The notes below the pieces were generated by a model, which saw only the letters and a list, made by a program, of their open reading frames with translations, was not told the origin of the DNA and searched no databases. Shown here in pieces: positions 13,722 through 60,847 of a stretch of DNA of 64,000 nt. Position 1 is the first letter of the stretch. Each line of letters begins with the position of its first letter. The position numbers were made by a program, and so were the translations under genes. The stretch comes from Patescibacteria group bacterium. GTDB lineage: Bacteria > Patescibacteriota > Minisyncoccia > Phycocordibacterales > CAIRYW01. The stretch covers positions 1,033-65,032 of the forward strand of contig JAZKAJ010000011.1 in the NCBI GenBank assembly GCA_040389185.1, read 5' to 3'.

Positions 13722-13742
13722 TGGAGTGCTCTGACGACAATG

Positions 13743-13777
13743 GGGAGGTGGTGCTTACGGGCCCACCTCCTTTTTTA
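13743..13777 (+). terminator. intrinsic terminator
   Basis: ggaggtgg-tgcttacgggc-ccacctcc followed by TTTTTT directly after the thrC-like stop. Confidence 0.6.
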
Positions 13778-14125: not shown

Positions 14126-14373
14126 AAATTATATTGTAACATTTTGAGCTTTTATGGAAAATTTCAATTTACTTTTTTCTGTCCATAAATACCCTTATTT
14201 CCCAACACATTTTCGTGTGGATAAATTTACGAGATTCCCACAAAACGCATTTTGAATATATTAGAATGATGTTAAGGAAGAGGAGTTGTGAAATTACAAG
14301 AGTGTTAGTTTAAAGAACATTCCTGTAACTTTAGAAGCCTTCCTACAAATTAATAGTTAGTAAAAATAAAAGA

Positions 14374-16096: not shown

Positions 16097-16158
16097 TTAA
16101 TTACAGATCTTTATTTAAAAGAACCAGTAGTTCATACTACTGGTTCTTTTAAATAAAT

Positions 16159-16806
16159 TTACTTCACTATCGAACATCCATTCACAAGCACATTACCAAG
16201 CTTTCCAGAGAGCTCACCTTTAAGAGTTAATCGATCTCCCTTGGATACTGTTGCCAATTGAGTCTCATCAGCTTTTGAGAACATACACTGAACATTCTCA
16301 AAAGAATACTGGCTTCCGTCGGTAAGTGAAATGTATGGAGTATCAACAATGTCTTTGCCAATGGTATCAACAAGGCCTGACACTTCGACAATATTGTTCT
16401 TGTACTTTGCATCAGCAGAAACTTCATTTGCTTTGTAGTCAGCAAGAAGTTTTGTTGCTGTTACTTTGATTGCTGGTTGTTCTGGTACTGGCACAGACAC
16501 ACTTTTATCTGTTACTACTGACGGCATAACATTACTTGATGAAGTTGTACCTATTATCACAAAGAGTACTAAGACAAGAAAGACTTTCAATCCTCGAGAA
16601 AGATTGATATGTAATTTCTCCTTTATTAATTTGTTACTCGGTGGCAATACAATGATTGCGATAAGGAGAAACAAAATTCCTGAGAGAGGCTTAGTAAAAA
16701 TTGTACTTACTGCTGTAAGTAACATGACTACACCAAATACCCAAGAGAATACAGAACCTAGAGTTATGTTTTTAGTCTTAACTGAAGACTGGTTGTTGTT
16801 TTCCAT
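16159..16806 (-). CDS. membrane-anchored OB-fold protein (tRNA_anti-like / BOF-type domain)
   Basis: 215 aa; N-terminal TM, then YKANEVSADAKYKNNIVEVSGLVD...GDRLTLKGELSG typical of OB-fold anticodon-binding-like domains. Confidence 0.4.
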   Translation of the reverse strand: MENNNQSSVKTKNITLGSVFSWVFGVVMLLTAVSTIFTKPLSGILFLLIAIIVLPPSNKLIKEKLHINLSRGLKVFLVLVLFVIIGTTSSSNVMPSVVTDKSVSVPVPEQPAIKVTATKLLADYKANEVSADAKYKNNIVEVSGLVDTIGKDIVDTPYISLTDGSQYSFENVQCMFSKADETQLATVSKGDRLTLKGELSGKLGNVLVNGCSIVK

Positions 16807-17070
16807 TGTAGCGAGTTTTTATAACATGACAGGTAGACAAAAAGCCCTCCGCCATGGCGATGGTCCGAAGACCACCCACATCCGTTTCCAGATATGACTC
16901 GCTACAAGTACCCTGACGAAGGGTTTTTTATCTTGTAGCGAGCTTTTCGACCATATCCTTTAAAACTTTTAAGGGTTTCAAAGGGGTTAGGTCTCTTATT
17001 AAGTTGTACTAAACAATAATACCAAGATTATAGGTATTAGTCAGTACCTTAGCTCGGATTAGGAATTTTA

Positions 17071-17091
17071 GGTAATCGAGTTACCAACAGC
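17071..17091. promoter_or_regulatory. candidate recombinase half-site GGTAA-tcgag-TTACCAACAG (shares an 11-mer with 18505-18515)
   Basis: gttaccaacag at 17080-17090 is identical to 18505-18515; small inverted repeat ggtaa/ttacc. Confidence 0.3.
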
Positions 17092-17478
17092 TTAGAATTG
17101 TGCTTTTTGACCCCAATTACCATCATCCCAGGCGGGTTTATCCGTTCCTGTGATATGAAATTCTCCATCATCCATCATTTCGCCGTAATAGACAGTGCCT
17201 GGTAGCCAGGCGGTTTCTCCAAGAAATTCTGATATAGCTTCTCCAGACTTCTGATAAACATAATTTATAATATTGTCTCCAGAATAATCACGAACATGAG
17301 TGTAAGGCATTACAGGGTTTGGAATTCCCATAAGAAAAAGGGTTGTCTTTTCTTTACCTGTCACTTCTTTTAATTCTGATCGTAGAAGAAACCGCAATCC
17401 TGTTCCAAGATACTCACCAGTACTCAACATATAACTTTTACTTGCAGTTTTAATTTCTGTTTCTTTATTCTCACTCAT
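17092..17478 (-). CDS. hypothetical protein
   Basis: 128-aa ORF; no recognisable motif. Confidence 0.35.
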   Translation of the reverse strand: MSENKETEIKTASKSYMLSTGEYLGTGLRFLLRSELKEVTGKEKTTLFLMGIPNPVMPYTHVRDYSGDNIINYVYQKSGEAISEFLGETAWLPGTVYYGEMMDDGEFHITGTDKPAWDDGNWGQKAQF

Positions 17479-17516
17479 TGTTTAATGATATTTAATATCG
17501 GTTAAATTGATAATGG

Positions 17517-17894
17517 TTATTTTTTAAGCTTCAATATCTGTGCCCAGCCTTTCTCATGAATGTCCTTTGCAAGAATAACTAATCGTCCCGCAAAAAAAGC
17601 AACACCCATACCCAAGACAGATAAACAAAGACCCGAAGCGAATGGATTTGTAAGTAAATTTGATAGACGTGGGTCAAGTTTTTCTAATCCACCATAAGCA
17701 GCAATCAGGGCGATTCCCCAGAATGCACTAAATCCTATATATTCGAATTCACTAAGTTTTTTATCCAAGTTTACTGTTTTCCTGTAAGACCACACAGTTA
17801 TAAAACCTGTGAAGATAATATAGAAGTAAACATATGCGTCATCTGTTGGATTCATATTTTTTAATTTTCTAATAATTATGACCCGTTCCTCCAA
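17517..17894 (-). CDS. hypothetical membrane protein
   Basis: 125 aa, three hydrophobic helices. Confidence 0.35.
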   Translation of the reverse strand: MEERVIIIRKLKNMNPTDDAYVYFYIIFTGFITVWSYRKTVNLDKKLSEFEYIGFSAFWGIALIAAYGGLEKLDPRLSNLLTNPFASGLCLSVLGMGVAFFAGRLVILAKDIHEKGWAQILKLKK

Positions 17895-17918
17895 ATTAAG
17901 GAGGAACGGGTTCTGTCA

Positions 17919-18203
17919 CTATCTCGCTGGAACTAAATCACCACACCAAGCTGTATATTGTAAGACAAGAATATTTGATGTCTTACCTGTACTGTTGGAT
18001 GACGTCTTTGCAAGAATGTGGACCTGCTGACAAGTTGCTGTAGTGTTTAGGGTGTATTCGGCAGTCGGAAGACTGTATCGAGCACCGTTACCTGCAGTGA
18101 TTGTCTTAACGAATCCTGCACGCTGCATTGCAGTATGAAGGATGTTATAATCGTTAGGATAGATAGCGTTGTGCAATTCTACTCTGATAAAGTATGAATT
18201 CAT
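17919..18203 (-). CDS. hypothetical small protein
   Basis: 94 aa (FIRVELHNAIYPNDYNILHTAMQRAGF...); first gene of a three-gene minus-strand block. Confidence 0.35.
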   Translation of the reverse strand: MNSYFIRVELHNAIYPNDYNILHTAMQRAGFVKTITAGNGARYSLPTAEYTLNTTATCQQVHILAKTSSNSTGKTSNILVLQYTAWCGDLVPAR

Positions 18204-18241
18204 TTTGTTTTCTAAGATTGGTTAATAAAATCGACCGTTAA

Positions 18242-18275
18242 CAAAAAGCGATGACCCCTCGGTCATCGCTTTTTG
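18242..18275. terminator. bidirectional intrinsic terminator
   Basis: aagcgatgacc-cctc-ggtcatcgctt flanked by AAAAA and TTTTT. Confidence 0.55.
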
Positions 18276-18483
18276 TATGGAATTTTTTTAGAGTAAATAA
18301 CTACTTATGATTCTATAATTTTAGTGATGATCGAAGGCTGTGAAGTTTGTTGTTTTGTTATGTTATGTTTTTTGCCTTCGAGATTGATGTCTCGTACGAA
18401 TATTGATCTATGTAGTTTTCAATGAACTTAACGATAATATATCACTATTTTTTATTTGCACAAACCGGGTAAAGTTTATATCC

Positions 18484-18515
18484 CTGTTGGTAAATTGGGG
18501 ATAAGTTACCAACAG
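18484..18515. promoter_or_regulatory. 32-bp imperfect palindrome CTGTTGGTAA-N12-GTTACCAACAG, candidate serine-recombinase site
   Basis: Perfect 10-bp inverted arms; lies about 30 nt upstream of the recombinase ORF; 11-mer shared with 17080-17090. Confidence 0.45.
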
Positions 18516-18541
18516 TCCAACCTGGACTCTCAAGAGGGGTT

Positions 18542-19879
18542 GTGTCATTCATTGAGTATATGAGTAGCGCAACAAATGCACCATTAGGAACAACAGCTAA
18601 AATAGTAATACCTGTAAAGGTGAAATACTGTCTTTACGCTAGAAAAAGCACAGAATCGGAAGAAGCTCAGATTCTTTCGATTGATAGCCAAATAAGGGAA
18701 ATGCAACAAATGGCAGACAGGGAGTGTTTGGAGATAGTTGAAATAAAGAGAGAATCACACTCCGCCAAAGAAGCAGGACAACGACCTGTGTTTAATGAGA
18801 TTGTAGAAGAAATTAAACTTGGAAAATTTAATGGAATTCTGACTTGGGCGGCAGATAGAATAAGTCGTAATGCGGGGGATCTTGGAAGAATTGTAGATCT
18901 AATGGATGCTGAGAAGCTTCATGATATTAGAACCTATAGCCAAAGATTCACCAACAATCCCAATGAGAAATTTCTTCTTATGATTCTTGGCTCACAAGCA
19001 AAGCTTGAGAATGACAATAAGGTGTTGAATGTAAAAAGAGGACTTAAAGCACGGTGTGAGATGGGACTCTGGCCTTGTGTACCGCCGACTGGATATTTAA
19101 GAAACAAGAATGTTGATAATAAATGTTTACCTGAAATAGATTCATATAGAGGAGCAATAATTAAGAAATGTTTTGAAAAAATAGCTTATGAAAAATGGTC
19201 AGGTAGAAAAGTATATAAATGGTTAAGAGACGAAGTAAACTTTAAAACAAAGACAGGTAAAATATATACTTTGAGCAATCTATATCTTACGTTACGGAAT
19301 CACTTCTATTACGGCACTTTTGAATATCCAAAAGACAGCGGTCATTGGTATACAGGTAAACATACACCCCTCATAACCAAAGAGTTGTTTGATAAGGTAC
19401 AGGAAGGAATAAGTAATTACAATGATCGAAACGAACACAAGGAATTCGCTTTTACAAAGATAATGTCTTGCGGACTGTGTGGATCTGGGATTACTGCTGA
19501 TGAGAAATTTAAGAAACTGGCGAATGGCAGTGTTCAGAGATATGTGTATTATGGTTGCACAAGATTTAATGATCGTGATTGTAAATCAGGATGGATCAAT
19601 GAAGTTGATCTTATAGAACAATTAGCTAATCTAATGGGCAATATTGATCTCGATGAAATTGGCATGAAGGAAAAGATAAAAGAAGAAATAGAACGACATA
19701 AGAAGTTTAGTTTGGGGCTACTAGGCGAAAAAGCTAAAGTAATTAAGACAACTGATATTGATATTCGAAATTATGCCAAATATGTTCTCCGCGACGGTGC
19801 CTCATGGGAGAAAAGAGAGTTATTGGGATGCTTAAGAAGTAAGATTTCCCTAAATGCAAAAAAGATAGAGATTCACTAA
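18542..19879 (+). CDS. large serine recombinase (resolvase catalytic domain plus recombinase domain plus zinc ribbon)
   Basis: Catalytic-serine motif CLYARKSTESEE; GDLGRIVDLMD and LLMILGSQAKLENDN regions; C-terminal Cys cluster CGLCGSG...YYGC. The true start is probably the ATG at 18560. Confidence 0.85.
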   Translation: MSFIEYMSSATNAPLGTTAKIVIPVKVKYCLYARKSTESEEAQILSIDSQIREMQQMADRECLEIVEIKRESHSAKEAGQRPVFNEIVEEIKLGKFNGILTWAADRISRNAGDLGRIVDLMDAEKLHDIRTYSQRFTNNPNEKFLLMILGSQAKLENDNKVLNVKRGLKARCEMGLWPCVPPTGYLRNKNVDNKCLPEIDSYRGAIIKKCFEKIAYEKWSGRKVYKWLRDEVNFKTKTGKIYTLSNLYLTLRNHFYYGTFEYPKDSGHWYTGKHTPLITKELFDKVQEGISNYNDRNEHKEFAFTKIMSCGLCGSGITADEKFKKLANGSVQRYVYYGCTRFNDRDCKSGWINEVDLIEQLANLMGNIDLDEIGMKEKIKEEIERHKKFSLGLLGEKAKVIKTTDIDIRNYAKYVLRDGASWEKRELLGCLRSKISLNAKKIEIH

Positions 19880-19888
19880 GCCGGTAAG

Positions 19889-20128
19889 CTATTCCATTGC
19901 ATTCTTTTTGATTCTATACCATTCTCTTACATCAAGTTGTAAATAATCTTTACAGTCCAAAAGAATTTTAGATAACTCTTTATGTCTATACATATCTTCT
20001 AGCGGTGGCGCTGGTCGAATATCTCGTCGAATATTGGAATCCCTATCATAAACTTGAAACGCATAATTTATTGTGGTATCAATTTTTTTATACTCTTCAT
20101 AAAGCTTTAAGTATTCTTTTTCTTCCAT
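19889..20128 (-). CDS. hypothetical small protein (third gene of the nuclease operon)
   Basis: 79 aa; 17-nt gap from the upstream gene on the same strand. Confidence 0.4.
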   Translation of the reverse strand: MEEKEYLKLYEEYKKIDTTINYAFQVYDRDSNIRRDIRPAPPLEDMYRHKELSKILLDCKDYLQLDVREWYRIKKNAME

Positions 20129-20145
20129 GCAATTTATGTTATTGA

Positions 20146-20463
20146 TTATTTAATCGAATAAGCGAACTGAAGCATGCCGTTTGTTTGCGGATAAAAATCA
20201 AATAAAGTCTCAAAATTATCTTGATTTTCAGATGTCTGGAATTTGACATACTTTAAATTGGTCTTTTCTTCAAACCACTTTTTTAAAACTTCATCAACCT
20301 TTATATCTTTTGTTTGCTTCTTGAAGAGTCTGGATAGAAATACTATGTCAGCACAAACAATAATTTTACATAAAATACTACCATTATCGTCTTCAATAAA
20401 ACTCCTTTGCCAAAAAACATCAGCATGCCAATCCTCTTTAATATTTCCTAGAATTAATTTCAC
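20146..20463 (-). CDS. hypothetical small protein (second gene of the nuclease operon)
   Basis: 105 aa; its start overlaps the upstream gene's stop by 4 nt (ATGA), implying translational coupling. Confidence 0.4.
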   Translation of the reverse strand: MKLILGNIKEDWHADVFWQRSFIEDDNGSILCKIIVCADIVFLSRLFKKQTKDIKVDEVLKKWFEEKTNLKYVKFQTSENQDNFETLFDFYPQTNGMLQFAYSIK

Positions 20464-21683
20464 AGTTTTGATCTTAAATTTTTAAGGTTTTCGAGTAATT
20501 CATCATAGAGAATGAAGTTTATATTTTTCAATGATGATCCAAGCTTCCTGAAATCAGCTGACTCTTTTTTATTTTTGAACTGCTTGCTTGTACCAGCAAT
20601 AATATATCCTCGCGGTCTTACCACCTGTATATCAATACCTTTTTTATTTTTTACAGCACGAATATATGCGTCAGAATTATGAACGATCTCATCAGTGTAA
20701 TTTTCTATTTGAGCAATAGCCATTGAAACATCCGGCTTCCAATAATAATTATCATGATCTTTATCAAAACTAAGCAATGAAACATCATGTTTCTTTATTT
20801 CAAAAACATCAACAAATCCATATACATCCACTAATACGAAGTCGGGGTAGCTAACACTAATACTTACATTTTGTTTTTCAATTGCAGTGACATAATTGGC
20901 CATAAATCGAAACACCTTTTCACTAAGAAATTTTTGCCAATCATTTTCGGAAATGCTTTTTTTAGCCAAATTTGCCTCAAACTCTTTAATAACTTCATCA
21001 AGATAAATTCTATCTGTAGTAGTTTTAGCGCTTTTAATTAGTGTAGCGCGCCCATTTTTTATTCCTCGTTTTTTACCTTTAAGAGAACCTTCAAATATTT
21101 TCGGGAAGAAGTTATTAAGCGACTCAAGATCCTCCTCATTTAGCCTTTGAGCTACTTTCTTACGTCGTAAGAGAGCAGCAATCTCACCTGCCTTATACTC
21201 ATCAAAATCGTCAGTAGAAATCTTTATGTCTTTTGGAAACTTAGTACTTAAAAAAGATGCTACAGCACTTCGTAACTCATTATTACTGTCTTCGTTAATA
21301 CGACCAAGTTTAATAAGAAGATTTTTTATGTCTAAAAGCGGCAGAACAACAGAAACCTTATGCTTTCCTTTATGAACCTTCTTTGTCTTCTTGGAAACAA
21401 TAAGTTCAAGAACTTTGGATCCCGCTAAATGCTCCTTCAGAGCAGTAAGGAGGAAAATTCCTTTTTTTCCAAAACCATAACCTTTTTTATTAAGATAAAG
21501 TCCTGAAGGAAGACCTTGATAACCTTCGAGAGTAATACTTGATACTTGTTTTGATTTTGCAGGTTGTAAATAGTAGATGGTCTTATCTGATTTAGGATAT
21601 ACCTCATATACACAAAAGTCAGGTTTATCAGACGCATAATGACGTTCTGGAATTTCAATCTTTTTATCTTTTTTTGCAACCAT
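20460..21683 (-). CDS. PD-(D/E)xK nuclease-domain protein, Shedu (DUF4263)-like or RecB/Cas4-like C-terminal domain, lysine-rich N-terminal region
   Basis: 407 aa. The C-terminal region shows the ordered motifs YPDFVLVD, then DVFEIKK ((D/E)xK), then AIAQIENY (QxxxY), as in RecB-family and Shedu-type nucleases. The N-terminal 280 aa are K-rich with no recognised domain. The Shedu assignment is made from motifs only. Confidence 0.5.
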   Translation of the reverse strand: MVAKKDKKIEIPERHYASDKPDFCVYEVYPKSDKTIYYLQPAKSKQVSSITLEGYQGLPSGLYLNKKGYGFGKKGIFLLTALKEHLAGSKVLELIVSKKTKKVHKGKHKVSVVLPLLDIKNLLIKLGRINEDSNNELRSAVASFLSTKFPKDIKISTDDFDEYKAGEIAALLRRKKVAQRLNEEDLESLNNFFPKIFEGSLKGKKRGIKNGRATLIKSAKTTTDRIYLDEVIKEFEANLAKKSISENDWQKFLSEKVFRFMANYVTAIEKQNVSISVSYPDFVLVDVYGFVDVFEIKKHDVSLLSFDKDHDNYYWKPDVSMAIAQIENYTDEIVHNSDAYIRAVKNKKGIDIQVVRPRGYIIAGTSKQFKNKKESADFRKLGSSLKNINFILYDELLENLKNLRSKL

Positions 21684-21790
21684 ATATAAGCTACTTTATA
21701 CCATAAAAATAGCCCAATTTCATTGGTTAAAATAACTTAAACTATAGACTATGTTGGACTTGACCCAACTTAGTAGGTCTCACATGTGGG

Positions 21791-21863
21791 TGCGTCCAGT
21801 TGGAATCGAACCAACGACCGTCTCCTTAAAAGGGAGCTGCTCTACCGACTGAGCTATGGACGC
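21791..21863 (-). tRNA. tRNA-Lys (anticodon UUU)
   Basis: Cloverleaf: acceptor GCGTCCA/TGGACGC; D-arm GCTC-AGTCGGTA-GAGC; anticodon loop CTTTTAA; T-arm GTTGG-TTCGATT-CCAAC. CCA is not encoded. Confidence 0.85.
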
Positions 21864-21924
21864 AATACGTGAAAATATATCAGAAAATCAGAAAAAGTCC
21901 ACTTTCACGAGTGAGTAGTTCTTA

Positions 21925-22931: not shown

Positions 22932-23408
22932 ATGAAGGCTCGCAAGGTAATTATTATTTTGGATAATATCAGAAGCAACCATAATGTAGGCTCTATTTTC
23001 CGTACCGCAGATGCTCTCGGTGTATCCAAAATTTATCTTTGTGGGACAACACCGAAACCAATAGATAGGTTTGAAAGACCTGTAGGGGAAATAGCCAAGA
23101 CTGCGCTCGGAGCGGAGAAGAGTATTTCTTGGGAGTATGCAAAAACTACTCTGGGTGTAATAAAAAGATTGAAAAAGAATGGAACAGAGATTATTGCGAT
23201 TGAGCAATTTGATAATTCAGTCGATTATAAAAAAGTAAAACCAAAAGAAGATGTTGCATTCGTACTCGGCAATGAAGTAGACGGAGTAAACAAAAACATT
23301 TTAAAACTTTGTGATGTTGTGGCAGAGATTCCAATGAAAGGAGGGAAGGAGTCTTTGAATGTTGCTGTCGCATGTGGTACTGCATTATTTCGCATACTAA
23401 ATTATTAA
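22932..23408 (+). CDS. SpoU/TrmH-family RNA 2'-O-methyltransferase
   Basis: VIIILDNIRSNHNVGSIFRTADALG, then FVLGNEVDGV and ESLNVAVACG (SPOUT knot motifs). Confidence 0.75.
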   Translation: MKARKVIIILDNIRSNHNVGSIFRTADALGVSKIYLCGTTPKPIDRFERPVGEIAKTALGAEKSISWEYAKTTLGVIKRLKKNGTEIIAIEQFDNSVDYKKVKPKEDVAFVLGNEVDGVNKNILKLCDVVAEIPMKGGKESLNVAVACGTALFRILNY

Positions 23409-23451
23409 AAATAAATAACAATCTCACGATCGTGAGATTGTTATTTATTTT
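23408..23451. terminator. 44-bp perfect palindrome (bidirectional terminator-like), copy 1
   Basis: aaaataaataacaatctcac-gatc-gtgagattgttatttatttt; near-identical second copy at 23954-23995. Confidence 0.6.
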
Positions 23452-23472: not shown

Positions 23473-23958
23473 ATGTCACTCATACTTGATATATTGGAGG
23501 AGTTGTCGAATGTGGAAATACGTTACAAAGGAGGTGTTGGGATCAATCTTTTTGGTATGCCGAGATTCGAGTCTCAAAATAAACAGTCTTTGAAATCTAG
23601 TTTTTATAGATTAAGTCGGGGTGGTTATATTGAAAAAGAGGCTAGCGGATGGAGGTTAACGGAAACCGGTAAAAAATATTTAAAATCTGACCATTCAAAC
23701 TATAAGACTTTTTCATCACCTTTTAAAAAAGAAAGTCCTAAAAATCTTATTGTAATATTCGATATACCAGAAGAGCGCAGGTCAGAAAGAGACTGGTTTA
23801 GAAGTCATCTAAGAAGATTTGATTATTTGATGATTCAAAGGAGTGTGTGGGTAGGGCCCTCTCCGTTGCCGAAGGAATTTCAGGACTATCTTAAGAAGTT
23901 AAAATTAAAATCCTGCTTAAAGACCTTTAAACTTTCTAAAAGTTATAAGGCTAAATAA
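23473..23958 (+). CDS. winged-helix domain protein with a C-terminal Cas2-like motif
   Basis: 161 aa. N-terminal wHTH-like region (YRLSRGGYIEKEASGWRLTETGKKYL). C-terminal LIVIFDIPEERRSERDWFRSHLRRFDYLMIQRSVWVG resembles the Cas2/PaaX-C core (beta1 xDIP...RR...L...G..RIQ.SVW). Confidence 0.35.
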   Translation: MSLILDILEELSNVEIRYKGGVGINLFGMPRFESQNKQSLKSSFYRLSRGGYIEKEASGWRLTETGKKYLKSDHSNYKTFSSPFKKESPKNLIVIFDIPEERRSERDWFRSHLRRFDYLMIQRSVWVGPSPLPKEFQDYLKKLKLKSCLKTFKLSKSYKAK

Positions 23959-23995
23959 AATAACAACTTCACGATCGTGAAGTTGTTATTTTATT
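23954..23995. terminator. 42-bp perfect palindrome, copy 2
   Basis: aataaaataacaacttcac-gatc-gtgaagttgttattttatt; same tcacgatcgtga core as copy 1, with arm substitutions that preserve pairing. Confidence 0.6.
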
Positions 23996-25581: not shown

Positions 25582-26502
25582 TTATTTCTGATGCACATCA
25601 CAAAAGTGTGCACTTCTGCCACCGATCACTTTTCTTTTAATTGTTCCGGTGCACCCACGTTTTTCACATTTTGTTCCTGTTTTTCTATATGCTTTGTGTT
25701 CTGCCTGAAATTTTCCTCGTTCACCTAGGATGTTTCGATAGTCGCTCATTGAATCACCACCAAAATCGATTCCTTTTTTGAGAGTTTCCCTCGTTGCTTC
25801 AAACATTGTTTCGAATTCTTTGTCAGTGATATTTTTTATTAATCTTTCTGGGTGAATACTTGCTCTCCAGAGTATTTCGTCTGAATAGATATTGCCGATA
25901 CCAACAACAATTTTAGGATCGAGAAGCACAGTCTTTATTTTGCCACCCATTCTCTTTTGGAGTCTTTGTTTGAATTCTTCTTTTGTAAACTCTGGGTCAA
26001 GTGGTTCTGGGCCGAGATCTTTCAGATGAAGTGTCTGGCCGATATCTTCTTTTGGAATGTAAGTAACTTTGGCAAACTTTCTCATATCTGAAAGTGCGAG
26101 GTATTTGCCATCAGAGAGCGTAATAATAAATCTGACGTGTCTGTTGAATGGATCTTTGAGTGATTCGGGGGAGACACCTTTCCAGGGATCTTTTTTATCA
26201 GTCTTATCAAACATATATGTGCCGTACATGAGATGCCCTGTCATTTTGAGATGAATAAGAATTATACTTTCATCGTCCAATTCAATCAAAATGTTCTTTG
26301 CTCTTCTTTTGGCGCTTACTATTTTTCTTCCGACAACTTGTTTTTTGAAATAGGTGAAAAACTTTGCATCTTTAATATGATCTTTCCCTGTATGAAATCC
26401 ACTTATATTGCCGTAGTTGGTCCAGGTATCAGAAATAGAGAGACCTTTGAGATAGGTGTTAATTCCGTTTACGGTAGTTTGGACTTCCGGGAGTTCAGGC
26501 AT
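25582..26502 (-). CDS. mutM: formamidopyrimidine-DNA glycosylase / endonuclease VIII family (Fpg/Nei)
   Basis: N-terminal MPELPEV (catalytic Pro2/Glu3); H2TH region; C-terminal zinc finger CEKRGC...CDVHQ. Confidence 0.75.
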   Translation of the reverse strand: MPELPEVQTTVNGINTYLKGLSISDTWTNYGNISGFHTGKDHIKDAKFFTYFKKQVVGRKIVSAKRRAKNILIELDDESIILIHLKMTGHLMYGTYMFDKTDKKDPWKGVSPESLKDPFNRHVRFIITLSDGKYLALSDMRKFAKVTYIPKEDIGQTLHLKDLGPEPLDPEFTKEEFKQRLQKRMGGKIKTVLLDPKIVVGIGNIYSDEILWRASIHPERLIKNITDKEFETMFEATRETLKKGIDFGGDSMSDYRNILGERGKFQAEHKAYRKTGTKCEKRGCTGTIKRKVIGGRSAHFCDVHQK

Positions 26503-26536
26503 TTATCCTAGAAAATTTTAGCTGTTAAAAAAGTTG
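26500..26536 (-). promoter_or_regulatory. conserved 5' leader/promoter block (copy 1) upstream of fpg
   Basis: atcctagaaaattttagctgttaaaaaagttg (32 nt) is identical at 27378-27409 upstream of the NUDIX gene; similarity continues more weakly for about 100 nt further upstream. Confidence 0.5.
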
Positions 26537-27375: not shown

Positions 27376-27410
27376 TTTATCCTAGAAAATTTTAGCTGTT
27401 AAAAAAGTTG
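27373..27410 (-). promoter_or_regulatory. conserved 5' leader/promoter block (copy 2) upstream of the NUDIX gene
   Basis: Same 32-nt block as 26505-26536 with a 1-nt T-run difference next to the start codon. Confidence 0.5.
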
Positions 27411-29153: not shown

Positions 29154-29225
29154 CCCTTTGTCGTTCAATGGATAGGACACATCCTTGCGAAGGATGTGAT
29201 AGAGGTTCGATTCCTCTCGAAGGGA
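29154..29225 (+). tRNA. tRNA-Arg (anticodon GCG as read; unusual)
   Basis: Acceptor CCCTTTG/CGAAGGG (one G-U pair); D-arm GTTC-AATGGATA-GGAC; anticodon arm CATCC-TTGCGAA-GGATG; T-arm AGAGG-TTCGATT-CCTCT. Confidence 0.7.
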
Positions 29226-29446
29226 TACAATTAAAAAAAACGTACCGGTTCGTACGTTTTTTTTAATTGTATCCCTTCGAAAAAGTGCTGAACGCACTTT
29301 TGTAGAGGAATCGAACGCCGGAATATATTTTTCGGAGTTGAGAAAAATACGAGGTGGTGACCAGACAAATTCTGCAGGTAGCAGAATTTAGTCGAGGTCG
29401 ATACTCCTCTAGTAGAGGAATCGGGGTACTGAACCTGTAAGAATCG
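29226..29446 (-). repeat. tRNA 3'-half mimic structured element, type-1 copy C (partner tRNA-Arg-GCG), minus-strand sense
   Basis: A 29-bp perfect hairpin (29217-29280) embeds the tRNA 3' end. Read on the minus strand, the element carries sense copies of the T-arm (ggcgttcgattcctct) and the acceptor 3' strand (cgaagggata). The small hairpin aagtgcgttcagcactt lies between those two copies. The type-1 core is cgactaaattctgc-tacct-gcagaatttgtctggtcacca. A partial type-2 block lies at 29422-29446. Confidence 0.6.
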
Positions 29447-29479
29447 ATATTTCATTTTTATTTTTGCTATAATATCTAG

Positions 29480-44278: not shown

Positions 44279-44477
44279 TCCTTGAACCATTGAGCCTCCG
44301 CGAAAAATTTTTTCGTGGAGGCTCTGTCATTTTTATATTATTAAATCTAAGATATTTATATCTTGCTAATGTAACTTGGATCACGGTTCAAGTTCGCGAG
44401 ATATCTCACTTTGAAATATCGCCAGAATACTAATGCTTTACAAATCACGGTAGAGTGCGATTAAAGATAGAGAGAGC

Positions 44478-44605
44478 TCGTGTACTGAAACTGCAGAATG
44501 AGTAGTTAGGATATGTGCCTGCACCGGCTTCGCCGATGGCCTGGCGGACGGTATCTGCGTGAGAGAGGGGGGACGGTGAAGATGAGTTTGTATTTGGGCA
44601 TAGAT
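44478..44605 (-). pseudogene. frameshifted 5' fragment of a paralogue of the 47108-47431 gene
   Basis: About 88% nucleotide identity to 47307-47433 (start codon and first about 42 codons, MPKYKL(I/V)FTVP...). An extra C in the CCCCCC run shifts the frame. The fragment has GC-enriched third positions and is truncated at 44478. Confidence 0.6.
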
Positions 44606-44721: not shown

Positions 44722-45999
44722 TTATTTATTCTCCAAAATCTTGGGAACATTGAACATTGCGATTGTAATGTCGTCAGGTTTAGTAATATATTTACTGGTC
44801 ATTTCGCTTTTTATTTCAGCTTCATTTTTCACATCTTTGAATTTCATAGGATCGAAAGATTCAAGTGTGCCTTGTGTGAGCATAGTTTTTCGAATGTGAT
44901 ATTCATTAATGAAACCAGACGCTGTTCCTAGGACAGAGGGTGGTGTGAGCTTAAGTGTAGGATATTTCAATTCATATTTATCAAGCCAAGCTTCATTATA
45001 CTCTTTTGTTCTGGATTGATAGTTGTCAGAGAACCAGTCTGTAGCACATGTTATTGAATCTACATTTTGAACAGTGTGTATATTTTGTTTCAAATCAAAT
45101 GTGGTCTGTCGGCTTCCATCAGTAACACCAAGCGCTATACCAGTATCAGCATCATTTATATTGTCATCTCCATAAGAGATCAAGTTTCCATCTTTTGTTT
45201 TCACGTATACTGGTGAATCACCAAGCTGAAGTATGTTCACAGAACCATCGTCATTGATTCTACAAAGGGACATTGTGGTGTGGCCATTAAATTTATCTGC
45301 TTTAATTGCTGGATCTTTTGCTCTCACATCTTCAATAAATTTCTCAATAAGCGATTCTAGACCTCCATCTTCAAAGGCTTGTTCCCATGAATTGTTATCT
45401 TTTGTGAGCTCGTGTGATAAAAATCTGGCTATATCTCCGGAGTGTGGAGCGCCTCCCATCCCATCGGCAACACAGAATGTTTTTCGGTCTGGAGATATGC
45501 CAAATCCATCTTGCCCATGACTTTTTTCTTGTCTGTGTCTCATATTTGCATGAATGATTTTATAGCCGTCATCATCCAAATCGCCAAGCACTATTTTTTC
45601 ATTGCCTAATTCTAGTCCTTGATTGCCGTAAGTTTCATTTAGAGTTTCGTTGGTAATCGGACGATCTTTGAATTCCAAAGGTTCTTTTGAGAAAGAGAAT
45701 TGTGGTGGAGTATTAGGTATTGTTTGAACCATCTTCGGTTGAGATGCTGCTACTATTGGGACAGGTGTCGATTCTACGTTTCCATTTTTCACAAGTTGTT
45801 CTTTCAGAAATGTGTCAAAAAGACCAGTTCTCGTAGTCGGTGGCACAGGCTTTGATGGTATTTTTTGTGGTACCACTTGGCTCTCAATTTGTTTGCGTTT
45901 TAATAGATTATCAAATGATTCGGTCTGAGGTAACTCATCTTGAACAGGTTGCTGTCCGTTCTCCATAGATTTACGCAAGAGATCATCAAAATTACTCAT
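44722..45999 (-). CDS. PP2C-family Ser/Thr protein phosphatase with Pro-rich N-terminal region
   Basis: FCVADGMGGAPHSGD (PP2C DGxGG motif) and LQLGDSPVYV (GDS motif); 425 aa. Confidence 0.65.
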   Translation of the reverse strand: MSNFDDLLRKSMENGQQPVQDELPQTESFDNLLKRKQIESQVVPQKIPSKPVPPTTRTGLFDTFLKEQLVKNGNVESTPVPIVAASQPKMVQTIPNTPPQFSFSKEPLEFKDRPITNETLNETYGNQGLELGNEKIVLGDLDDDGYKIIHANMRHRQEKSHGQDGFGISPDRKTFCVADGMGGAPHSGDIARFLSHELTKDNNSWEQAFEDGGLESLIEKFIEDVRAKDPAIKADKFNGHTTMSLCRINDDGSVNILQLGDSPVYVKTKDGNLISYGDDNINDADTGIALGVTDGSRQTTFDLKQNIHTVQNVDSITCATDWFSDNYQSRTKEYNEAWLDKYELKYPTLKLTPPSVLGTASGFINEYHIRKTMLTQGTLESFDPMKFKDVKNEAEIKSEMTSKYITKPDDITIAMFNVPKILENK

Positions 46000-46040
46000 G
46001 TAAGGATTATATCAAAATATAGAAATACTGCTAAATATTT

Positions 46041-46266
46041 TGGGTGAGGCGAGAGTTTCGACCTCGACTAAATTTTTCTACCCGAAAAATTTGTCTGGTC
46101 ACCAGCTCACACCGCCGATGAGCTCATCGGCGACTACGCTTCGCTTCGTGTGTTCCGCTGTTCGAATCTCGCCTGTTTTTCGGAGAAAAACCAAGTTGCT
46201 TCGCAACTTGCCTCCGCCAATAAGAAAAAACACCTGCATCTGCACGGTGTTTTTTCTTATTGGCGG
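46041..46266 (+). repeat. tRNA 3'-half mimic structured element, type-1 copy A (partner tRNA-Ser)
   Basis: Its 5' end tgggtgaggcgagagtttcgac is antisense-like to the tRNA-Ser 3' end. The core is cgactaaatttttc-taccc-gaaaaatttgtctggtcaccagctcac, followed by the perfect hairpin cgccgatgagctcatcggcg. Sense T-arm/acceptor copy ccgctgttcgaatctcgcc and acceptor end cctccgcca follow. A 21-bp perfect hairpin closes the element at 46214-46266. Confidence 0.6.
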
Positions 46267-46534
46267 GCCACTGGAGTTAAGTGATAGAGGACTCAAGTGT
46301 CATAAGGATATTCTAGGATTTTTACAGAGAATATTCGAGGCACTTGAGTCTAAGGTGGACTTTCTATAAAATGAGACAACTGAGACAGTTTTGAGAGGTT
46401 TGAAATACGCGCATTGTAAAATTGAAAATTCGTGGTATTGTTTTCGCGTTAGTCTAACCGTTCGACAGTATCTAAAGAACTGTCTCATGGTAAGACAGTT
46501 CTTCGATATCTAACGAATCAACCTCTCGTAACCT

Positions 46535-47038
46535 ATGAAAACACCGATTACCGCCGGCCGCGTCTTTTCGCAGCTCTCTTATACAACCATCATCAAAGTC
46601 ATTGCTGCACTTACTGTGATGCACAATTCTGAGAAAGAGTGCAGGGGTGGAATCCTTGCTATTCTGGTGCAAGGACCAGAAGGAAGCACCCTCGAATCTC
46701 GCGAACTCGGAGCCCCGGGAGAAAAGGCATTTGATTCTGCCTATTTCGCCCACGAAAAAATCCGTCGCCTCGCCACTCGTCGCCTGACTGCGGGAAGCGA
46801 AGGGGAATATGCATCTTCGCAAAGTGCAGATCCTGAGAAGGGTCAGTACGGCGGCTGCGTCGTGTCGTGGCACGGGAAGTATGAAATCTTTATCTCATTC
46901 TCGGGAGCACCCGCTGTCGTGGATGAGGTCGTCACTTATGTCGTCGCTGAAGCCCTCGGGTTCACGGTTTCGACTGAGTATCAGAACGATCTTCTTCCGC
47001 AAGCTCGCGCACTACTCGAGCGTTGTCGCAGGCCATGA
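46535..47038 (+). CDS. hypothetical protein in a second high-GC segment
   Basis: 167-aa ORF; visibly high GC; preceded by (T)GAGACAG motifs at 46372-46392 and 46485-46505. Confidence 0.4.
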   Translation: MKTPITAGRVFSQLSYTTIIKVIAALTVMHNSEKECRGGILAILVQGPEGSTLESRELGAPGEKAFDSAYFAHEKIRRLATRRLTAGSEGEYASSQSADPEKGQYGGCVVSWHGKYEIFISFSGAPAVVDEVVTYVVAEALGFTVSTEYQNDLLPQARALLERCRRP

Positions 47039-47107
47039 AATAAGGCAAGTGTCGTTGATATCCCACGTGGAGTCCTGAGCAATCGGGACTCCATTTTTAT
47101 TTTTTTA

Positions 47108-47431
47108 TTAGAATTTTCTTGTTTCGAGAGGGAATAAATCGTATGCAATTTCTTCGTATGGGTGACTTGCTCGGAGTGCTTTTAATACTTCATCAACTTT
47201 ATCTGCATCAATCTGACATTCAATTCTTTCTTCCTCCACCTCTTCAAATTTTCCGACTTCACCGATTGCTGGTGTTGCACCTGTTTCAGGCTTGAATCTT
47301 CCTATGCCTCGTGTACTGAAACTGCAGAATGAATAGTTGGGATATGTGCCTGCACCAGCTTTGCCGATAGCTTGGCGAACAGTGTCTGCGTGGGAGAGGG
47401 GAACTGTGAAGACGAGTTTGTATTTGGGCAT
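47108..47431 (-). CDS. conserved hypothetical small protein (alpha/beta, about 107 aa)
   Basis: MPKYKLVFTVPLSHADTVRQAIGKAGAG...HPYEEIAYDLFPLE; a frameshifted paralogous fragment lies at 44478-44605. Confidence 0.45.
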   Translation of the reverse strand: MPKYKLVFTVPLSHADTVRQAIGKAGAGTYPNYSFCSFSTRGIGRFKPETGATPAIGEVGKFEEVEEERIECQIDADKVDEVLKALRASHPYEEIAYDLFPLETRKF

Positions 47432-47435
47432 AGGG

Positions 47436-48467
47436 TTATTTTACCACTCTTTTAGATCTTAAGGGTTTGAGTTCAGGGAACAAGTTCAAGTTAAAAATTT
47501 TATTCAATAATAGATTCCTTGTTATTTCATCCATTTTAAGCATGAGACTTAATAATGCTACTGAATTCTCGCGCCACTCCTCACTCGTCCTTGACCAGTC
47601 CCAAACAATCTCTCCTTCATCCTGGATGATGTTTGATGATTTTGGAATCAGTGCCTCGTGCACGGTTTTGTGTCTTATTTTTTGCCTTATTTCCCAAATT
47701 ACTTTTAAGTATTCTTCTACCCGTTCAGTATCTTTGATTATTTCTGAAAGGCGATGCTCGATCCACTCCTTTGATGTTGTTTTACTATGAGAATGAATTT
47801 TTCCATGAACACTACATTCAACTATTCCAGGACATTTAGGTGCTGTTCCTATTATTGATTCCGTTATAGAGAATAGAACCAAGATGCGCAGAAAGGATGA
47901 ATTTCTAATAGTTCTTTCGGTGGTAATCCTTGTATTTTCTTTACTATTAAAATAAGCCTTAATTAAGGATTTGTTTTCTCTAGACTGGTCTAGATATTTT
48001 TTATATAAATCCGCGTATCTTAAAATATGTGGGTAATTATTTGGGAAATATATTTTATTTGATATGTCAGAATAATCTAAAAGATAATTACACTCACCTT
48101 CGGGTATCATCTTATCCGTATCAAAATTTGTACTTTCGTACCATTCCAGAGAAATATAATCATTAAAAATTATGTTATGAAATATTACCCATTCGTTGAT
48201 TGTGTTTTGACTACATTCACTAAATTCAATATTCATTGAGTCCCAATACATCGTCCCAAATCCAACCTCTATCTTAACTCGGGTTGCGGGAGAGATTGTT
48301 AACCCGTTAATAGTAACTTCTTTGTTTGGGGCATGTTGAGTTGGTAGTGTAAATTTCACGAGTCTAATTATATATCTACATATATAATTGTCGATAAATG
48401 AGGAGGCGAGAGTTTCGATCGTTACACGATCAGTACCCCGATTGGATAATTTGTTTCGATACCTCAC
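47436..48467 (-). CDS. hypothetical protein with C-terminal Rx4H (HEPN-like) motif
   Basis: 343 aa with IRQKIRHKTVHEA near the C-terminus. The 5' end of the longest ORF overlaps repeat element E (48400-48467), so the true start may be downstream. Confidence 0.35.
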   Translation of the reverse strand: MRYRNKLSNRGTDRVTIETLASSFIDNYICRYIIRLVKFTLPTQHAPNKEVTINGLTISPATRVKIEVGFGTMYWDSMNIEFSECSQNTINEWVIFHNIIFNDYISLEWYESTNFDTDKMIPEGECNYLLDYSDISNKIYFPNNYPHILRYADLYKKYLDQSRENKSLIKAYFNSKENTRITTERTIRNSSFLRILVLFSITESIIGTAPKCPGIVECSVHGKIHSHSKTTSKEWIEHRLSEIIKDTERVEEYLKVIWEIRQKIRHKTVHEALIPKSSNIIQDEGEIVWDWSRTSEEWRENSVALLSLMLKMDEITRNLLLNKIFNLNLFPELKPLRSKRVVK

Positions 48468-48573
48468 ACATTATGCTCAATCGGGCTTCGAATCTCGCAA
48501 GCAGTGCGCCCCGGCACTGCACTCCTCCGCCCAACAAAAAAGGCGCCCATATAAGGCGCTCTTGTTTTGTATT
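48400..48573 (+). repeat. tRNA 3'-half mimic element, degenerate type-1 copy E, abutting the tRNA-Ser 3' end
   Basis: gaggaggcgagagtttcga is antisense-like to the tRNA-Ser 3' end. Also present: aatttgtttcgatacctcac (core-like), the T-arm copy gggcttcgaatctcgc, the hairpin gcagtgcgccccggcactgc and the acceptor copy ctcctccgccca. A long inverted repeat with the real tRNA end spans 48510-48590 and encloses the ggcgcc-catataa-ggcgc terminator. Confidence 0.5.
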
Positions 48574-48661
48574 GGGCGGAGGAGGCGAGATTCGAACTCG
48601 CGGTACCTTGCGGCACTCCTGTTTTCAAGACAGGTGCACTAAACCACTATGCGACTCCTCC
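48574..48661 (-). tRNA. tRNA-Ser (anticodon UGA), type II with long variable arm
   Basis: Acceptor GGAGGAG/CTCCTCC; 3-bp D-stem with large D-loop; anticodon arm CCTGT-CTTGAAA-ACAGG; variable arm GTGCC-GCAA-GGTAC; T-arm GCGAG-TTCGAAT-CTCGC. Confidence 0.8.
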
Positions 48662-48721
48662 AATATTTGGCTATGTTAGCAGAAAAAGCTGGAATTCACA
48701 AATTGGGGTATACTATTCTAT

Positions 48722-49114
48722 ATGAGAATTTTGGGTATTGATTATGGTTCAAAGAGGGTAGGGCTTGCAACTGCTGATACAGAGAGCGGTATGGCGTTTC
48801 CTCGTTCTGTTATAAATAACGACAAGGATCTTTTGAAGACTATTGGCGAGATTAAAAAAAAGGAAAATATCTCAAAAATTATTCTTGGTGAAAGTAAAAA
48901 CCTGAACGGTACGGATAACGATATTATGGAAGATATTCGGAAATTCAAGGCGGTTCTTGAAGCTGAACTTGATGTCGAGGTAATATTACAGCCAGAATTT
49001 TATAGCACTTATGGTGCATCAAGGATCCAGGGGGATAGCGCTATGATAGATGCATCAGCAGCAGCCATCATTTTGCAGTCATATGTTGATCAATTAAAAA
49101 ATATAAAACAATAA
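48722..49114 (+). CDS. ruvX: Holliday-junction-resolvase-like nuclease RuvX/YqgF
   Basis: MRILGIDYGSKRVGLATAD start and overall 130-aa YqgF pattern. Confidence 0.85.
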   Translation: MRILGIDYGSKRVGLATADTESGMAFPRSVINNDKDLLKTIGEIKKKENISKIILGESKNLNGTDNDIMEDIRKFKAVLEAELDVEVILQPEFYSTYGASRIQGDSAMIDASAAAIILQSYVDQLKNIKQ

Positions 49115-52497: not shown

Positions 52498-52569
52498 GCC
52501 CCTGTAGTTAAATGGATATAACTGCGGACTTCTAAGCCGTTATTCGAGGTTCGATTCCTCGCGGGGGCA
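52498..52569 (+). tRNA. tRNA-Arg (anticodon UCU) with an A31/G39 mismatch at the base of the anticodon stem
   Basis: Acceptor GCCCCTG/CGGGGGC; D-arm GTTA-AATGGATA-TAAC; anticodon arm GCGGA-CTTCTAA-GCCGT; T-arm CGAGG-TTCGATT-CCTCG. Confidence 0.6.
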
Positions 52570-52682
52570 CAAAGATAAACAAAAAGCCCTATCGTTTTTC
52601 AACAATAAGGCTCTTATAAATTTGGATTACGATTTACAAAATCTAATCCATAGAATCAAATATCTGAGATTTTTTATATGTT

Positions 52683-52830
52683 ATGCCCCCGAGCAAGCCT
52701 GGGATGGCTTGCGTCCAGGAATCGAAAACCTTTTGAGTATAATTTATGATTTTAAGAAATAAATTATCCAAAAGGTGTACTGATCCTGTAAGGATCGATA
52801 AGCGTACTCGCGGTCCAACCGGGAGCACTG
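52683..52830 (-). repeat. tRNA 3'-half mimic element, type-2 copy F (partner tRNA-Arg-UCU), minus-strand sense
   Basis: Block 52770-52823 is near-identical to the reverse complement of 11074-11127. Read on the minus strand, the element carries ctcaaaaggttttcgattcc, then the hairpin gcaagcc-atc-ccaggcttgc, then tcgggggca. That last segment matches the Arg-UCU acceptor 3' strand. Confidence 0.55.
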
Positions 52831-60584: not shown

Positions 60585-60784
60585 TATACAGGAGTCTCTC
60601 CTTCGACTAAATTTTGCTACCCGCAAAATTTGTCTAGGCACCAGCTCACTTGTTTTGAAAGCTTTCAAAACATAGCTCCGCTGTTCGAGTCCTAACGAAA
60701 GTGCGTTTAGCACTTTCTTATCGCCCACAAAAATACAAAAACACCAGATATTATCTGGTGTTTTTGTATTTTTGTGGGCGATAC
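60585..60784 (+). repeat. tRNA 3'-half mimic structured element, type-1 copy B (partner tRNA-Val), ending in a 31-bp perfect hairpin that includes the tRNA-Val 3' end
   Basis: Its 5' end tatacaggagtc is antisense-like to the tRNA-Val T-arm. The core is cgactaaattttgc-taccc-gcaaaatttgtctaggcaccagctcac, followed by the hairpin tgttttgaaagctttcaaaaca. Sense T-arm copy ccgctgttcgagtcct and the hairpin aagtgcgtttagcactt follow, then the acceptor copy atcgccca. The palindrome 60720-60782 contains the A-rich run cacaaaaatacaaaaac. Confidence 0.65.
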
Positions 60785-60847
60785 AGGACTCGAACCTGTG
60801 ACCATCCGAGTGTAAATCGGGCGCTCTACCAACTGAGCTAATCGCCC
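60775..60847 (-). tRNA. tRNA-Val (anticodon UAC)
   Basis: Acceptor GGGCGAT/ATCGCCC; D-arm GCTC-AGTTGGTA-GAGC; anticodon loop TTTACAC; T-arm ACAGG-TTCGAGT-CCTGT. Confidence 0.85.

Follow-up and report, generated by a model that had tools for sequence, protein, structure and literature searches.

Why should a short stretch of non-coding DNA beside a transfer RNA (tRNA) gene carry copies of that gene's own 3' end, one direct and one inverted, enclosing a set of conserved hairpins? We addressed this question for an element, here called B, that faces the tRNA-Val(tac) gene in a 64-kb stretch of a Patescibacteria genome (GCA_040389185.1, contig JAZKAJ010000011.1; hereafter the window), and for its relatives at other tRNA genes, designated A, C, E, F and G. 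These elements share one architecture, are tRNA-specific, covary in their stems, accrete in tandem, turn over between related genomes, are orphaned by islands and are found inverted together with their tRNA gene. The reading we favour, with a probability of about 0.45, is that they form a lineage-specific family of gene-less, non-autonomous foldback elements which accrete at tRNA 3' ends in Taylorbacteria-like Patescibacteria by way of an att-like site.

Read along the element strand, a unit measures 130-300 bp, contains no open reading frame (ORF) and follows a set order. It begins with a 5' arm, the complement of the tRNA acceptor 3' strand, T-stem 3' strand and T-loop, followed by at least one structured module, a sense copy of the tRNA T-loop and T-stem 3' strand, a conserved small hairpin (ACGCAAG..CTTGC or GAAAGTGC..GCACTTTC), and a sense copy of the acceptor 3' strand with the discriminator base. 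The unit ends in a palindrome of A-tract, GC hairpin and T-tract that is common to the element and the tRNA. The modules fall into three classes: type 1 is a hairpin with a TACCC loop; type 2 combines a TTACA-loop hairpin, AGTACCCC and a long hairpin, and occurs in E, F and G and partly in C; type 3, GGTCAC..GACCCCGGCTCG (GGTCAC-hairpin-GCGACCCCGGCTCG), was seen in related loci and nowhere in the window. In B, the type-1 core is built from a CCT/AGG helix, a GAC/GTC helix, a 9-bp stem carrying the TACCC loop and then GTCTAGGCACCAGCTC, and a homologue of the small hairpin of B covaries in A3. Variable hairpins of several copies are perfect palindromes around a central AGCT, with no loop. The outer 8 bp of the long B palindrome consist of the acceptor copy ATCGCCCA and the real 3' end of tRNA-Val. 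The central palindrome is a bidirectional intrinsic terminator, with a GC-rich hairpin and a U-tract on both strands, and makes up one part of the unit only. A terminator was predicted on both strands at 48542-48560, where E and tRNA-Ser share it, and its arms reach into the acceptor sequence; for B, whose palindrome was not called under the stricter rule of the prediction tool, direct reading shows the A-tract, the hairpin and the T-tract.

ARAGORN and Rfam agree on five tRNA genes in the window, and each has a cognate element: A and E for tRNA-Ser, B for tRNA-Val, C for tRNA-Arg(gcg), F for tRNA-Arg(tct) and G for tRNA-Lys (Table 1). An earlier note on this DNA had described four type-1 copies, A, B, C and a degenerate E. 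Three of these stand: the exact core TCGACTAAATTnnnnTACCnnnnnAATTTGTCT occurs three times (46064-46096 and 60603-60635 on the plus strand, 29363-29395 on the minus strand; chance expectation 0), and a covariance model built from 10 type-1 copies matches, within the window, the A, B and C cores alone. E gives no match to the model even at E<=1 and instead carries a type-2 module, as do F and G, with both classes present in C. The type-2 motif TCGATCnTTACAnGATCAGTACnCC with its long hairpin, found in E, recurs at 52774-52798 (-), 11098-11122 (+) and 29423-29447 (-); F and G, absent from the note, were found through this module, and all five window tRNAs therefore have a cognate element. As the note had proposed, direct reading of A, B, C and E reveals sense copies of the T-arm and acceptor of the nearest tRNA and the small hairpin between them, every copy lies on the opposite strand and 3' side of a tRNA gene in the ARAGORN map, that is, convergent with it, and A is parted from tRNA-Ser by inserted DNA. 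In G, the T and acceptor copies (TTCGATTCCAAC..TGGACGCA) match the tRNA-Lys gene 10.5 kb away. The antisense copy claimed for every 5' end is clear in A, C and E but weak in B. That copy also qualifies the claim that the architecture is no ordinary att direct repeat: an inverted copy is indeed present, yet the 5' arm supplies a direct-repeat component. This arm repeats tRNA positions ~54-73 in direct orientation, without a mismatch over 18 nt in the related locus L002 and near-perfectly over a 10-mer in just 3 of 16 copies. As a side observation on the tRNA genes, the discriminator base is followed by CCCA, not CCA, in tRNA-Ser (48573-48577) and tRNA-Lys (21787-21791), and likewise in the element copies; neither tRNA-Val nor either tRNA-Arg gene of the window encodes CCA.

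The hairpins are maintained by compensatory change, as had been suggested from the stems of three copies. In an alignment of 10 type-1 cores, 94% of the cells are paired, compensatory changes occur at 8 of the 17 pairs and G-U fills 0 of 160 cells; none of 500 shuffles matched this covariation, and sliding the register lowered pairing to 21-50%. The type-2 alignment (8 copies) has compensatory changes at 20 of its 30 pairs, with one-sided changes in 2 cells only. The stems covary, and secondary structure is therefore under selection. As the covariation is almost wholly among Watson-Crick pairs, the selected structure leans towards being DNA-like; among minimum-free-energy pairs, 2.1% are G-U in the elements versus 6.7% in the tRNAs of the same loci. 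All copies fold much better than shuffled controls, with z of about -5. When the tRNA 3' end is included in a single-stranded DNA fold, the sense copy folds back on it to give a giant branched palindrome, for which z reaches -17.5 in B and -11.6 in E.

We then considered which strand might act. By raw energy the antisense strand is more stable in 15 of 17 copies and has more G-U pairs (56 versus 19), and we had taken this as a sign of a real antisense RNA. We withdrew that idea after computing composition-controlled z-scores, by which the element strand has a slight folding advantage over its complement in 13 of 17: the antisense lead disappears because that strand is simply G-rich. Sequence analysis does not distinguish motifs in attC-like DNA from motifs in RNA (Weinberg et al. 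2017, PMC5737381), a caveat that extends here to which strand acts and to whether it does so as RNA or as single-stranded DNA.

To see how far the pairing of tRNA and element extends, we turned to related loci from genomes and metagenomes (L001 and onwards), collected by strict type-1 pattern scans or fetched through PolA homologues. The window itself (~37% G+C) carries housekeeping genes (PolA, RuvA, Fpg, ribosomal proteins S20 and L19, PilM), and its PolA is 100% identical to a protein of a Patescibacteria metagenome-assembled genome and 93% identical to a Candidatus Taylorbacteria protein. The strict pattern returned 4 true loci in GTDB species genomes and 4 in JGI metagenomes, so that the breadth of the family is under-sampled. 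These loci adjoin a tRNA except for L006, an orphan like A, an extra Lys-type copy in L008, and L003, whose sequence ends before its tRNA. The copied 3' end is that of tRNA-Ser(gga) in L001 and L009, tRNA-Leu(tag) in L002 and a Lys-type tRNA in L004, L007 and L008; the L007 copy differs from the adjacent tRNA-Lys at 2 positions. The idea that each tRNA gene is shadowed by an element holds in these further genomes: within the clade of at least 73% PolA identity, 13 of 16 tRNAs have an inverted T-loop/T-stem 12-mer within 450 nt on their downstream side and none has one upstream, and in the 7.9-kb L008 locus each of the four tRNAs faces a convergent element. Outside the close clade occurrence is patchy, with recognisable elements at 2 of 4 tRNAs in L015 (63% PolA identity) and 0 of 1 in L016 (60%); L002 has one at 1 of its 2 tRNAs. 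L015, from a more distant Paceibacterota genome, includes at 21430-21520, on the strand opposite and convergent with tRNA-Ser(tga), a bare 45-nt minihelix (GGAGGAGGTGAGA-TGGGTGCA-ATCTCGCAC-ATA-CTCCCGC) with no inserted module, which may be a basal or a decayed form of the element. Separately, ARAGORN called an odd tRNA-Ile(tat) at L014 1004-1077, abutting a tRNA-Thr_ED-domain gene and lacking an element; this may be a false positive or an acquired tRNA.

Comparison of orthologous loci revealed the elements to be changing DNA. At the tRNA-Lys locus of relatives whose PolA proteins are 73-93% identical, the window, L014 and L012 have a type-2 module, L010 a reduced type 1, L004 a type 1 with three extra units and L007 a type 2 with a type 1. 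Units also stand in tandem, two to four in series, in C, L003, L004, L007 and L008; within these arrays the nearest unit matches the tRNA best and mismatches rise with distance. One L007 unit matches another tRNA-Lys allele than the one it abuts, and an identical 34-nt 5' segment is present in F, at the tRNA-Arg(tct) locus, and in unit 1 of the L007 tRNA-Lys locus. In addition, the whole unit of tRNA-Lys and element is inverted between conserved flanking genes in L010 relative to the window, and the Arg-gcg unit of L012 points the other way with respect to rpsT. The inverted unit comprises tRNA, promoter, terminator and element (L010 19067-19330 versus window 11073-11273 and 21787-21864; L012 16617-16952), and the sole inverted repeat at the ends of the flipped unit is the 7-8-nt acceptor sequence. 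A search of the 600-nt spacer in L010 for relics of older tRNAs found none.

Larger DNA separates units from their tRNA or from each other. When 46267-48400 is removed in silico, the terminator arm of A joins the 5' arm of E to give ATT-GGCGGAGGAGGCGAGA(GT)TTCGA, which is the antisense 3' end of tRNA-Ser; the E 5' arm therefore once served A as its 'tRNA end'. ORF-bearing inserts between units are seen here and in L008, where the insert has a 157-aa ORF. At the tRNA-Lys gene, a 10.5-kb island lies between the G terminator and tRNA positions ~71-73, with TGC repeated at both junctions, whereas in L014 a G-type element directly abuts tRNA-Lys. The island encodes a large serine recombinase (18542-19879), a Shedu SduA defence gene (20460-21683), a fusion of ParB with an N6/N4 methylase (14374-15720) and, in a stretch of higher G+C, a PALP enzyme (12345-13721). 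The A-E insert breaks its pseudo-tRNA end at the same position at which the island breaks tRNA-Lys, and comparison of the two island-end ORFs found no relatedness. The idea that A and E arose by tandem gene duplication was rejected, the neighbouring 425-aa and 343-aa proteins being unrelated.

Several observations on the inserts stand apart from this argument. AAAATGAGACAAnTGAGACAGTT, which contains a TGAGACA direct repeat, occurs at 11360-11389 and 46361-46390, ~100 nt inside the left end of both inserts, and in both of these element-orphaning inserts it is preceded by a stretch ..TGTAAGGGT..; it may serve as a binding site or form a structured end in a family of related islands. L006 keeps the version found on the A side. 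The Lys island also has CCCAACTYAGT near both ends and a full-length LOOT RNA at 16859-16993 (-) (Rfam RF03000, 76 bits versus a gathering score of 46), with small unknown ORFs on one side and a tRNA_anti-like OB-fold gene (16159-16806) on the other. Positions 44477-44603 and 47308-47433 carry two copies of a 126-bp segment at 89-92% identity; one copy forms the start of a 107-aa ORF in the A-E insert and the other is an apparent gene fragment upstream of a PP2C gene, which suggests an earlier rearrangement at this locus.

Altogether, the arrays, the turnover, the in silico rejoining, the restriction of covariation to Watson-Crick pairs and the failure to find a promoter tilt the evidence towards an integrative or accreting DNA element. 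In the scheme we propose, a unit would enter at the T-loop or 3' end of the tRNA gene, bringing a replacement 3' end and a terminator with it. The old 3' end would be displaced to become the 5' arm of the unit, and new units would hence stack beside the tRNA. Within a single strand, a duplex reproducing the attachment sequence of the tRNA gene could form either between the two arms or between the sense copy and the end of the tRNA, with the conserved hairpins acting as possible recognition features of the folded strand. The chemistry would fall to a recombinase supplied in trans; alternatively, homologous recombination of the tRNA with the 5' arm could exchange cassettes. The nearest copy might be kept identical to its tRNA by quasi-palindrome (template-switch) correction, a process established in palindrome mutagenesis. 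A folded single strand that rebuilds a duplex recombination site is likewise familiar from integron attC and CTX phage attP sites.

A number of points weigh against this scheme. Its main weakness is that a scan of ~50 window ORFs found no recombinase, HUH nuclease or transposase beside any mini-element; Pfam and PHROGs disclosed no hidden recombinase among the unannotated ORFs, and the sole recombinase is the serine recombinase of the separate 10.5-kb island. Copies within the genome have diverged, the best pair, A and B, reaching 86% identity over 58 nt, and therefore give no hint of a recent burst. Among the loci examined, every copy occurs in a tRNA context, and neither a free or circular form nor a high-identity polymorphism between empty and filled sites was seen. 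Nor are the 5' arms simply tRNA DNA that was displaced: a derived GT insertion is common to A and E, and the Lys-type arms of G, F, L004, L007, L008 and L014 contain an inserted 14-nt hairpin, CCGCGAGTACGCTT. Finally, that nearly all tRNAs of a streamlined genome are occupied and that the hairpins evolve fast by compensatory change is also compatible with a cellular function, and the better folding of the element strand in 13 of 17 copies fits a transcript as well as a folded DNA strand.

The best-surviving alternative, which we nonetheless regard as unlikely, is that each tRNA is accompanied by one gene for a stable, structured non-coding RNA (ncRNA), the terminal helix of which is the acceptor/T-stem minihelix of its partner and which has a role in tRNA metabolism. 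Such an RNA might serve RNase P, RNase Z, the CCA-adding enzyme or a synthetase as decoy or substrate, or might pair with the 3' half of the tRNA. It would account for the outer helix of E, GAGGAG-GCGAGA / TCTCGC..CTCCTC, which equals the tRNA-Ser acceptor stem fused to the T stem, and for the bare minihelix after tRNA-Ser in L015. Also in its favour are the folding z-scores of about -5 in all copies together with the preference for the element strand, stems that covary around preserved loops, an intrinsic terminator with a U-tract on the element strand, and the near-universal occupancy of tRNAs in a reduced genome. The transcription signals speak against it. No sigma-70-type promoter was predicted pointing into A, B or E, and a comparison of the sequence upstream of orthologous elements found no conservation. 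AT-rich boxes upstream of A and E were considered as element promoters and rejected, as they belong to the strong promoters of divergent genes that abut A and E on the opposite strand. Some copies have no room for a promoter, such as the L008 Cys element, which starts 6 nt from the 5' end of tRNA-Leu, and F has lost its terminator. A dedicated function is also a poor fit to the arrays, the chimeras and the L007 copy that mismatches its tRNA, and module type varies at orthologous tRNAs. G-U pairs are almost absent and, in the folds of A and E, the T-loop copy pairs with the 5' arm and forms no local T hairpin; the T-loop copy is therefore no structural T-loop mimic. More doubtful still is the stronger version, a genome-wide set of tRNA-specific ncRNAs that join sequence-exact minihelices to three-way-junction modules, serve tRNA processing, quality control or regulation, and have no known counterpart.

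We rate as improbable the idea that the elements have neither dedicated mobility nor an RNA function and are by-products of the terminator, in which a palindrome grows outwards by template-switch copying of the tRNA 3' end and modules resembling those of BIME and REP sequences, located in 3' untranslated regions and spacers between genes, spread only by ordinary homologous recombination and natural transformation. This would explain why the palindrome arms run straight into the acceptor copy and why the inverted copy closest to the tRNA is the most faithful. Half of the copies occupy a 3' untranslated region (UTR) position of a co-directional gene, with B, F and G beginning within ~10 nt after its stop codon, and the mosaic, modular make-up resembles that of BIMEs. 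However, modules that are homologous and keep their loops recur at different tRNAs and across different genera, which local palindrome growth could not produce. Covariation of the stems marks a structure under selection, the arrays have a regular unit structure, and both the 5' arm and the hairpin intervening between the T and acceptor copies are left unexplained.

A function of the tRNA strand, as a structured 3' trailer or inter-tRNA spacer co-transcribed by read-through (acceptor 5' strand, D-arm-like hairpin with a GG loop, T-stem arm), has very little probability: the raw-energy and G-U excess of the antisense strand, the GG-rich small-hairpin loop on the tRNA strand in most copies, and the L008 Cys element, which fills the whole spacer between tRNA-Cys and tRNA-Leu on the same strand behind a weak AU-rich hairpin, all suit it, but the energy advantage vanishes under composition control and strong U-tract terminators separate tRNA and element at most loci.

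The earlier note had left three options, a small RNA gene, an integrative element and a terminator module. The integrative or accreting element is now favoured, the terminator is real yet only one part of the unit, and the RNA gene is the less probable main rival.

Known classes of RNA and mobile DNA were also considered. At the gathering threshold, Rfam 15 finds only the five tRNAs and the LOOT RNA in the whole window and leaves the elements unmatched. Permissive Rfam scans (up to E<=10) of 45900-48800, L004, L007 and L008 returned sub-threshold hairpin noise only, and self-cleaving ribozymes, riboswitches and known small RNAs were rejected, there being no match even at E<=10. A transfer-messenger RNA (tmRNA) or two-piece tmRNA has similar-looking ends (5' GGAGG..TTTCGA, 3' TTCGAATC..CCA), but neither ARAGORN nor Rfam reports one, and the several copies per window and the missing local T hairpin also speak against it. 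Intron-containing or split tRNAs and group I tRNA introns were dismissed, Rfam detecting none at the elements; the group I tRNA introns of Patescibacteria lie in the anticodon loop at position 35/36, are Rfam-detectable and are unrelated to the elements (PMC13011429). A phage or plasmid origin was set aside, as both conserved motifs had 0 matches in viral contigs and blastn of B against phages and plasmids returned nothing. A literature search found no earlier description of the family, which appears to be undescribed.

Table 1. Coordinates of the tRNA genes, elements, parts of element B and inserts in the window.
Feature	Position	Strand	Description and evidence
tRNA-Lys(ttt)	21787-21864	-	ARAGORN, Rfam
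tRNA-Arg(gcg)	29154-29225	+	ARAGORN, Rfam
tRNA-Ser(tga)	48573-48662	-	ARAGORN, Rfam
tRNA-Arg(tct)	52498-52570	+	ARAGORN, Rfam
tRNA-Val(tac)	60774-60847	-	Convergent with element B; ARAGORN, Rfam
Element A	46042-46266	+	Type 1, Ser-type, with terminator palindrome; orphaned by insertion; near homologue in L006
A-E insert	46267-48399		DNA between A terminator and E 5' arm; shares AAAATGAGACAAnTGAGACAGTT with the Lys island
Element E	48400-48572	+	Type 2; 12-bp outer stem equal to tRNA-Ser acceptor and T stems; terminator shared
Element C	29226-29452	-	Truncated type-2 unit, type-1 unit, terminator; cognate tRNA-Arg(gcg)
Element F	52684-52827	-	Type 2; cognate tRNA-Arg(tct), with ~110 nt of other sequence between
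Element G	11073-11273 including terminator (unit 11073-11210)	+	Type 2, Lys-type; cognate tRNA-Lys(ttt)
B 5' arm	60588-60602	+	Weak antisense copy of tRNA-Val T-stem/T-loop (ACAGGAGTC..); pairs with the T copy in the RNA fold
B type-1 core	60593-60649	+	Covariance-model match, 81.7 bits; pattern match; covariation
B variable hairpin	60651-60672	+	Perfect 22-bp palindrome, centre AGCT
B sense copy of tRNA-Val T-loop and T-stem 3' strand (GTTCGAGTCCT)	60683-60693	+	Inverted 12-mer, 2 mismatches
B conserved small hairpin (GAAAGTGC-GTTTA-GCACTTTC)	60697-60717	+	Between T and acceptor copies
B/tRNA-Val palindrome	60720-60782		63 bp, near-perfect; bidirectional intrinsic terminator
10.5-kb island	11274-21789		Between G terminator and tRNA-Lys, at tRNA positions ~71-73

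Two further repeats were noted elsewhere in the window. A 35-nt sequence, TTTATCCTAGAAAATTTTAGCTGTTAAAAAAGTTG, is identical at 26502-26536 and 27376-27410, directly upstream of the minus-strand Fpg and NUDIX hydrolase genes, and is probably a common promoter or leader. Palindromic terminator-like repeats (AAATAACAAnnTCACGATCGTGAnnTTGTTATTT) at 23408-23446 and 23953-23991 lie on both sides of a 161-aa gene (23473-23958) with a Cas2-like / PaaX_M domain.

If the DNA reading is correct, the elements would represent a new way for mobile DNA to exploit tRNA genes, in which gene cassettes and defence islands insert between units piled up at nearly every tRNA of a minimal genome. They would be a tRNA-based counterpart to the folded single-stranded sites of the integron attC and CTX type, and would help to explain how the tiny genomes of Patescibacteria acquire and shuffle DNA. 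If the RNA reading is correct, they would constitute a previously unknown class of per-tRNA ncRNAs. On either reading they can serve in practice to mark tRNA loci, island boundaries and assembly breaks when such genomes are annotated, and they may make up ~1% of a 1-Mb genome.

How, then, do the elements compare with known systems? Among tRNA-like RNAs (the tRNA-like domain of tmRNA, YrlA, mascRNA and viral examples), the terminal helix is likewise composed of acceptor and T stems, and the element 3' end similarly carries a discriminator base and a CCA-like sequence. Unlike these RNAs, the elements have no local T hairpin and exist as one copy per tRNA with the sequence of that tRNA; ARAGORN called no tRNA or tmRNA on elements of the window or the related loci. 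With REP/BIME, BOX, RUP and Correia-type sequences, which resemble miniature inverted-repeat transposable elements (MITEs), they share small size, lack of coding capacity, hairpin formation, interchangeable modules and intergenic or 3' UTR positions between convergent genes. They differ in being strictly tRNA-linked, in having one orientation and in drawing their arms from the neighbouring tRNA. MITE hallmarks are missing, in that the arms differ from tRNA to tRNA, no target-site duplication is present and identity within the genome does not exceed the A-B value; no RAYT turned up among the ORFs scanned, and the comparison with REP/BIME concerns mosaic organisation only.

Islands and cis-mobilisable elements that target tRNA genes come closer. 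They use the same target, from the T-loop to the 3' end, leave a direct repeat on the far side, to which the 5' arm corresponds as a bounding copy of the tRNA 3' end, and form tandem arrays; true islands insert at the very same spots, as the 10.5-kb serine-recombinase island of the window does. In contrast, the units described here are only 130-300 bp long, have no integrase or other genes and no related autonomous element was found, contain an extra inverted att copy and hairpin modules, and occupy nearly every tRNA rather than a few hotspots. The integron attC and CTX attP(+) sites are similar in other respects. They too are imperfect inverted repeats whose arms pair and on folding rebuild a duplex recombination site, they have a variable centre, structure conserved over sequence and extra-helical features on one arm, and their units and gene-bearing inserts stack at a fixed chromosomal site. 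The elements differ in targeting the tRNA 3' end rather than attI or dif. With respect to attC, their arms are tRNA-specific and differ from copy to copy (for example GTTCGAGTCCT) where attC has R''/R' boxes (RYYYAAC / GTTRRRY), of which the GTTRRRY box is absent; no tyrosine recombinase such as an intI product was found among the ~50 window ORFs, and a simple bulged hairpin is replaced by elaborate three-way junctions. On the favoured reading, the elements would combine features of tRNA-targeting integrative elements with those of folded single-stranded recombination sites, under a rule of one element per tRNA.

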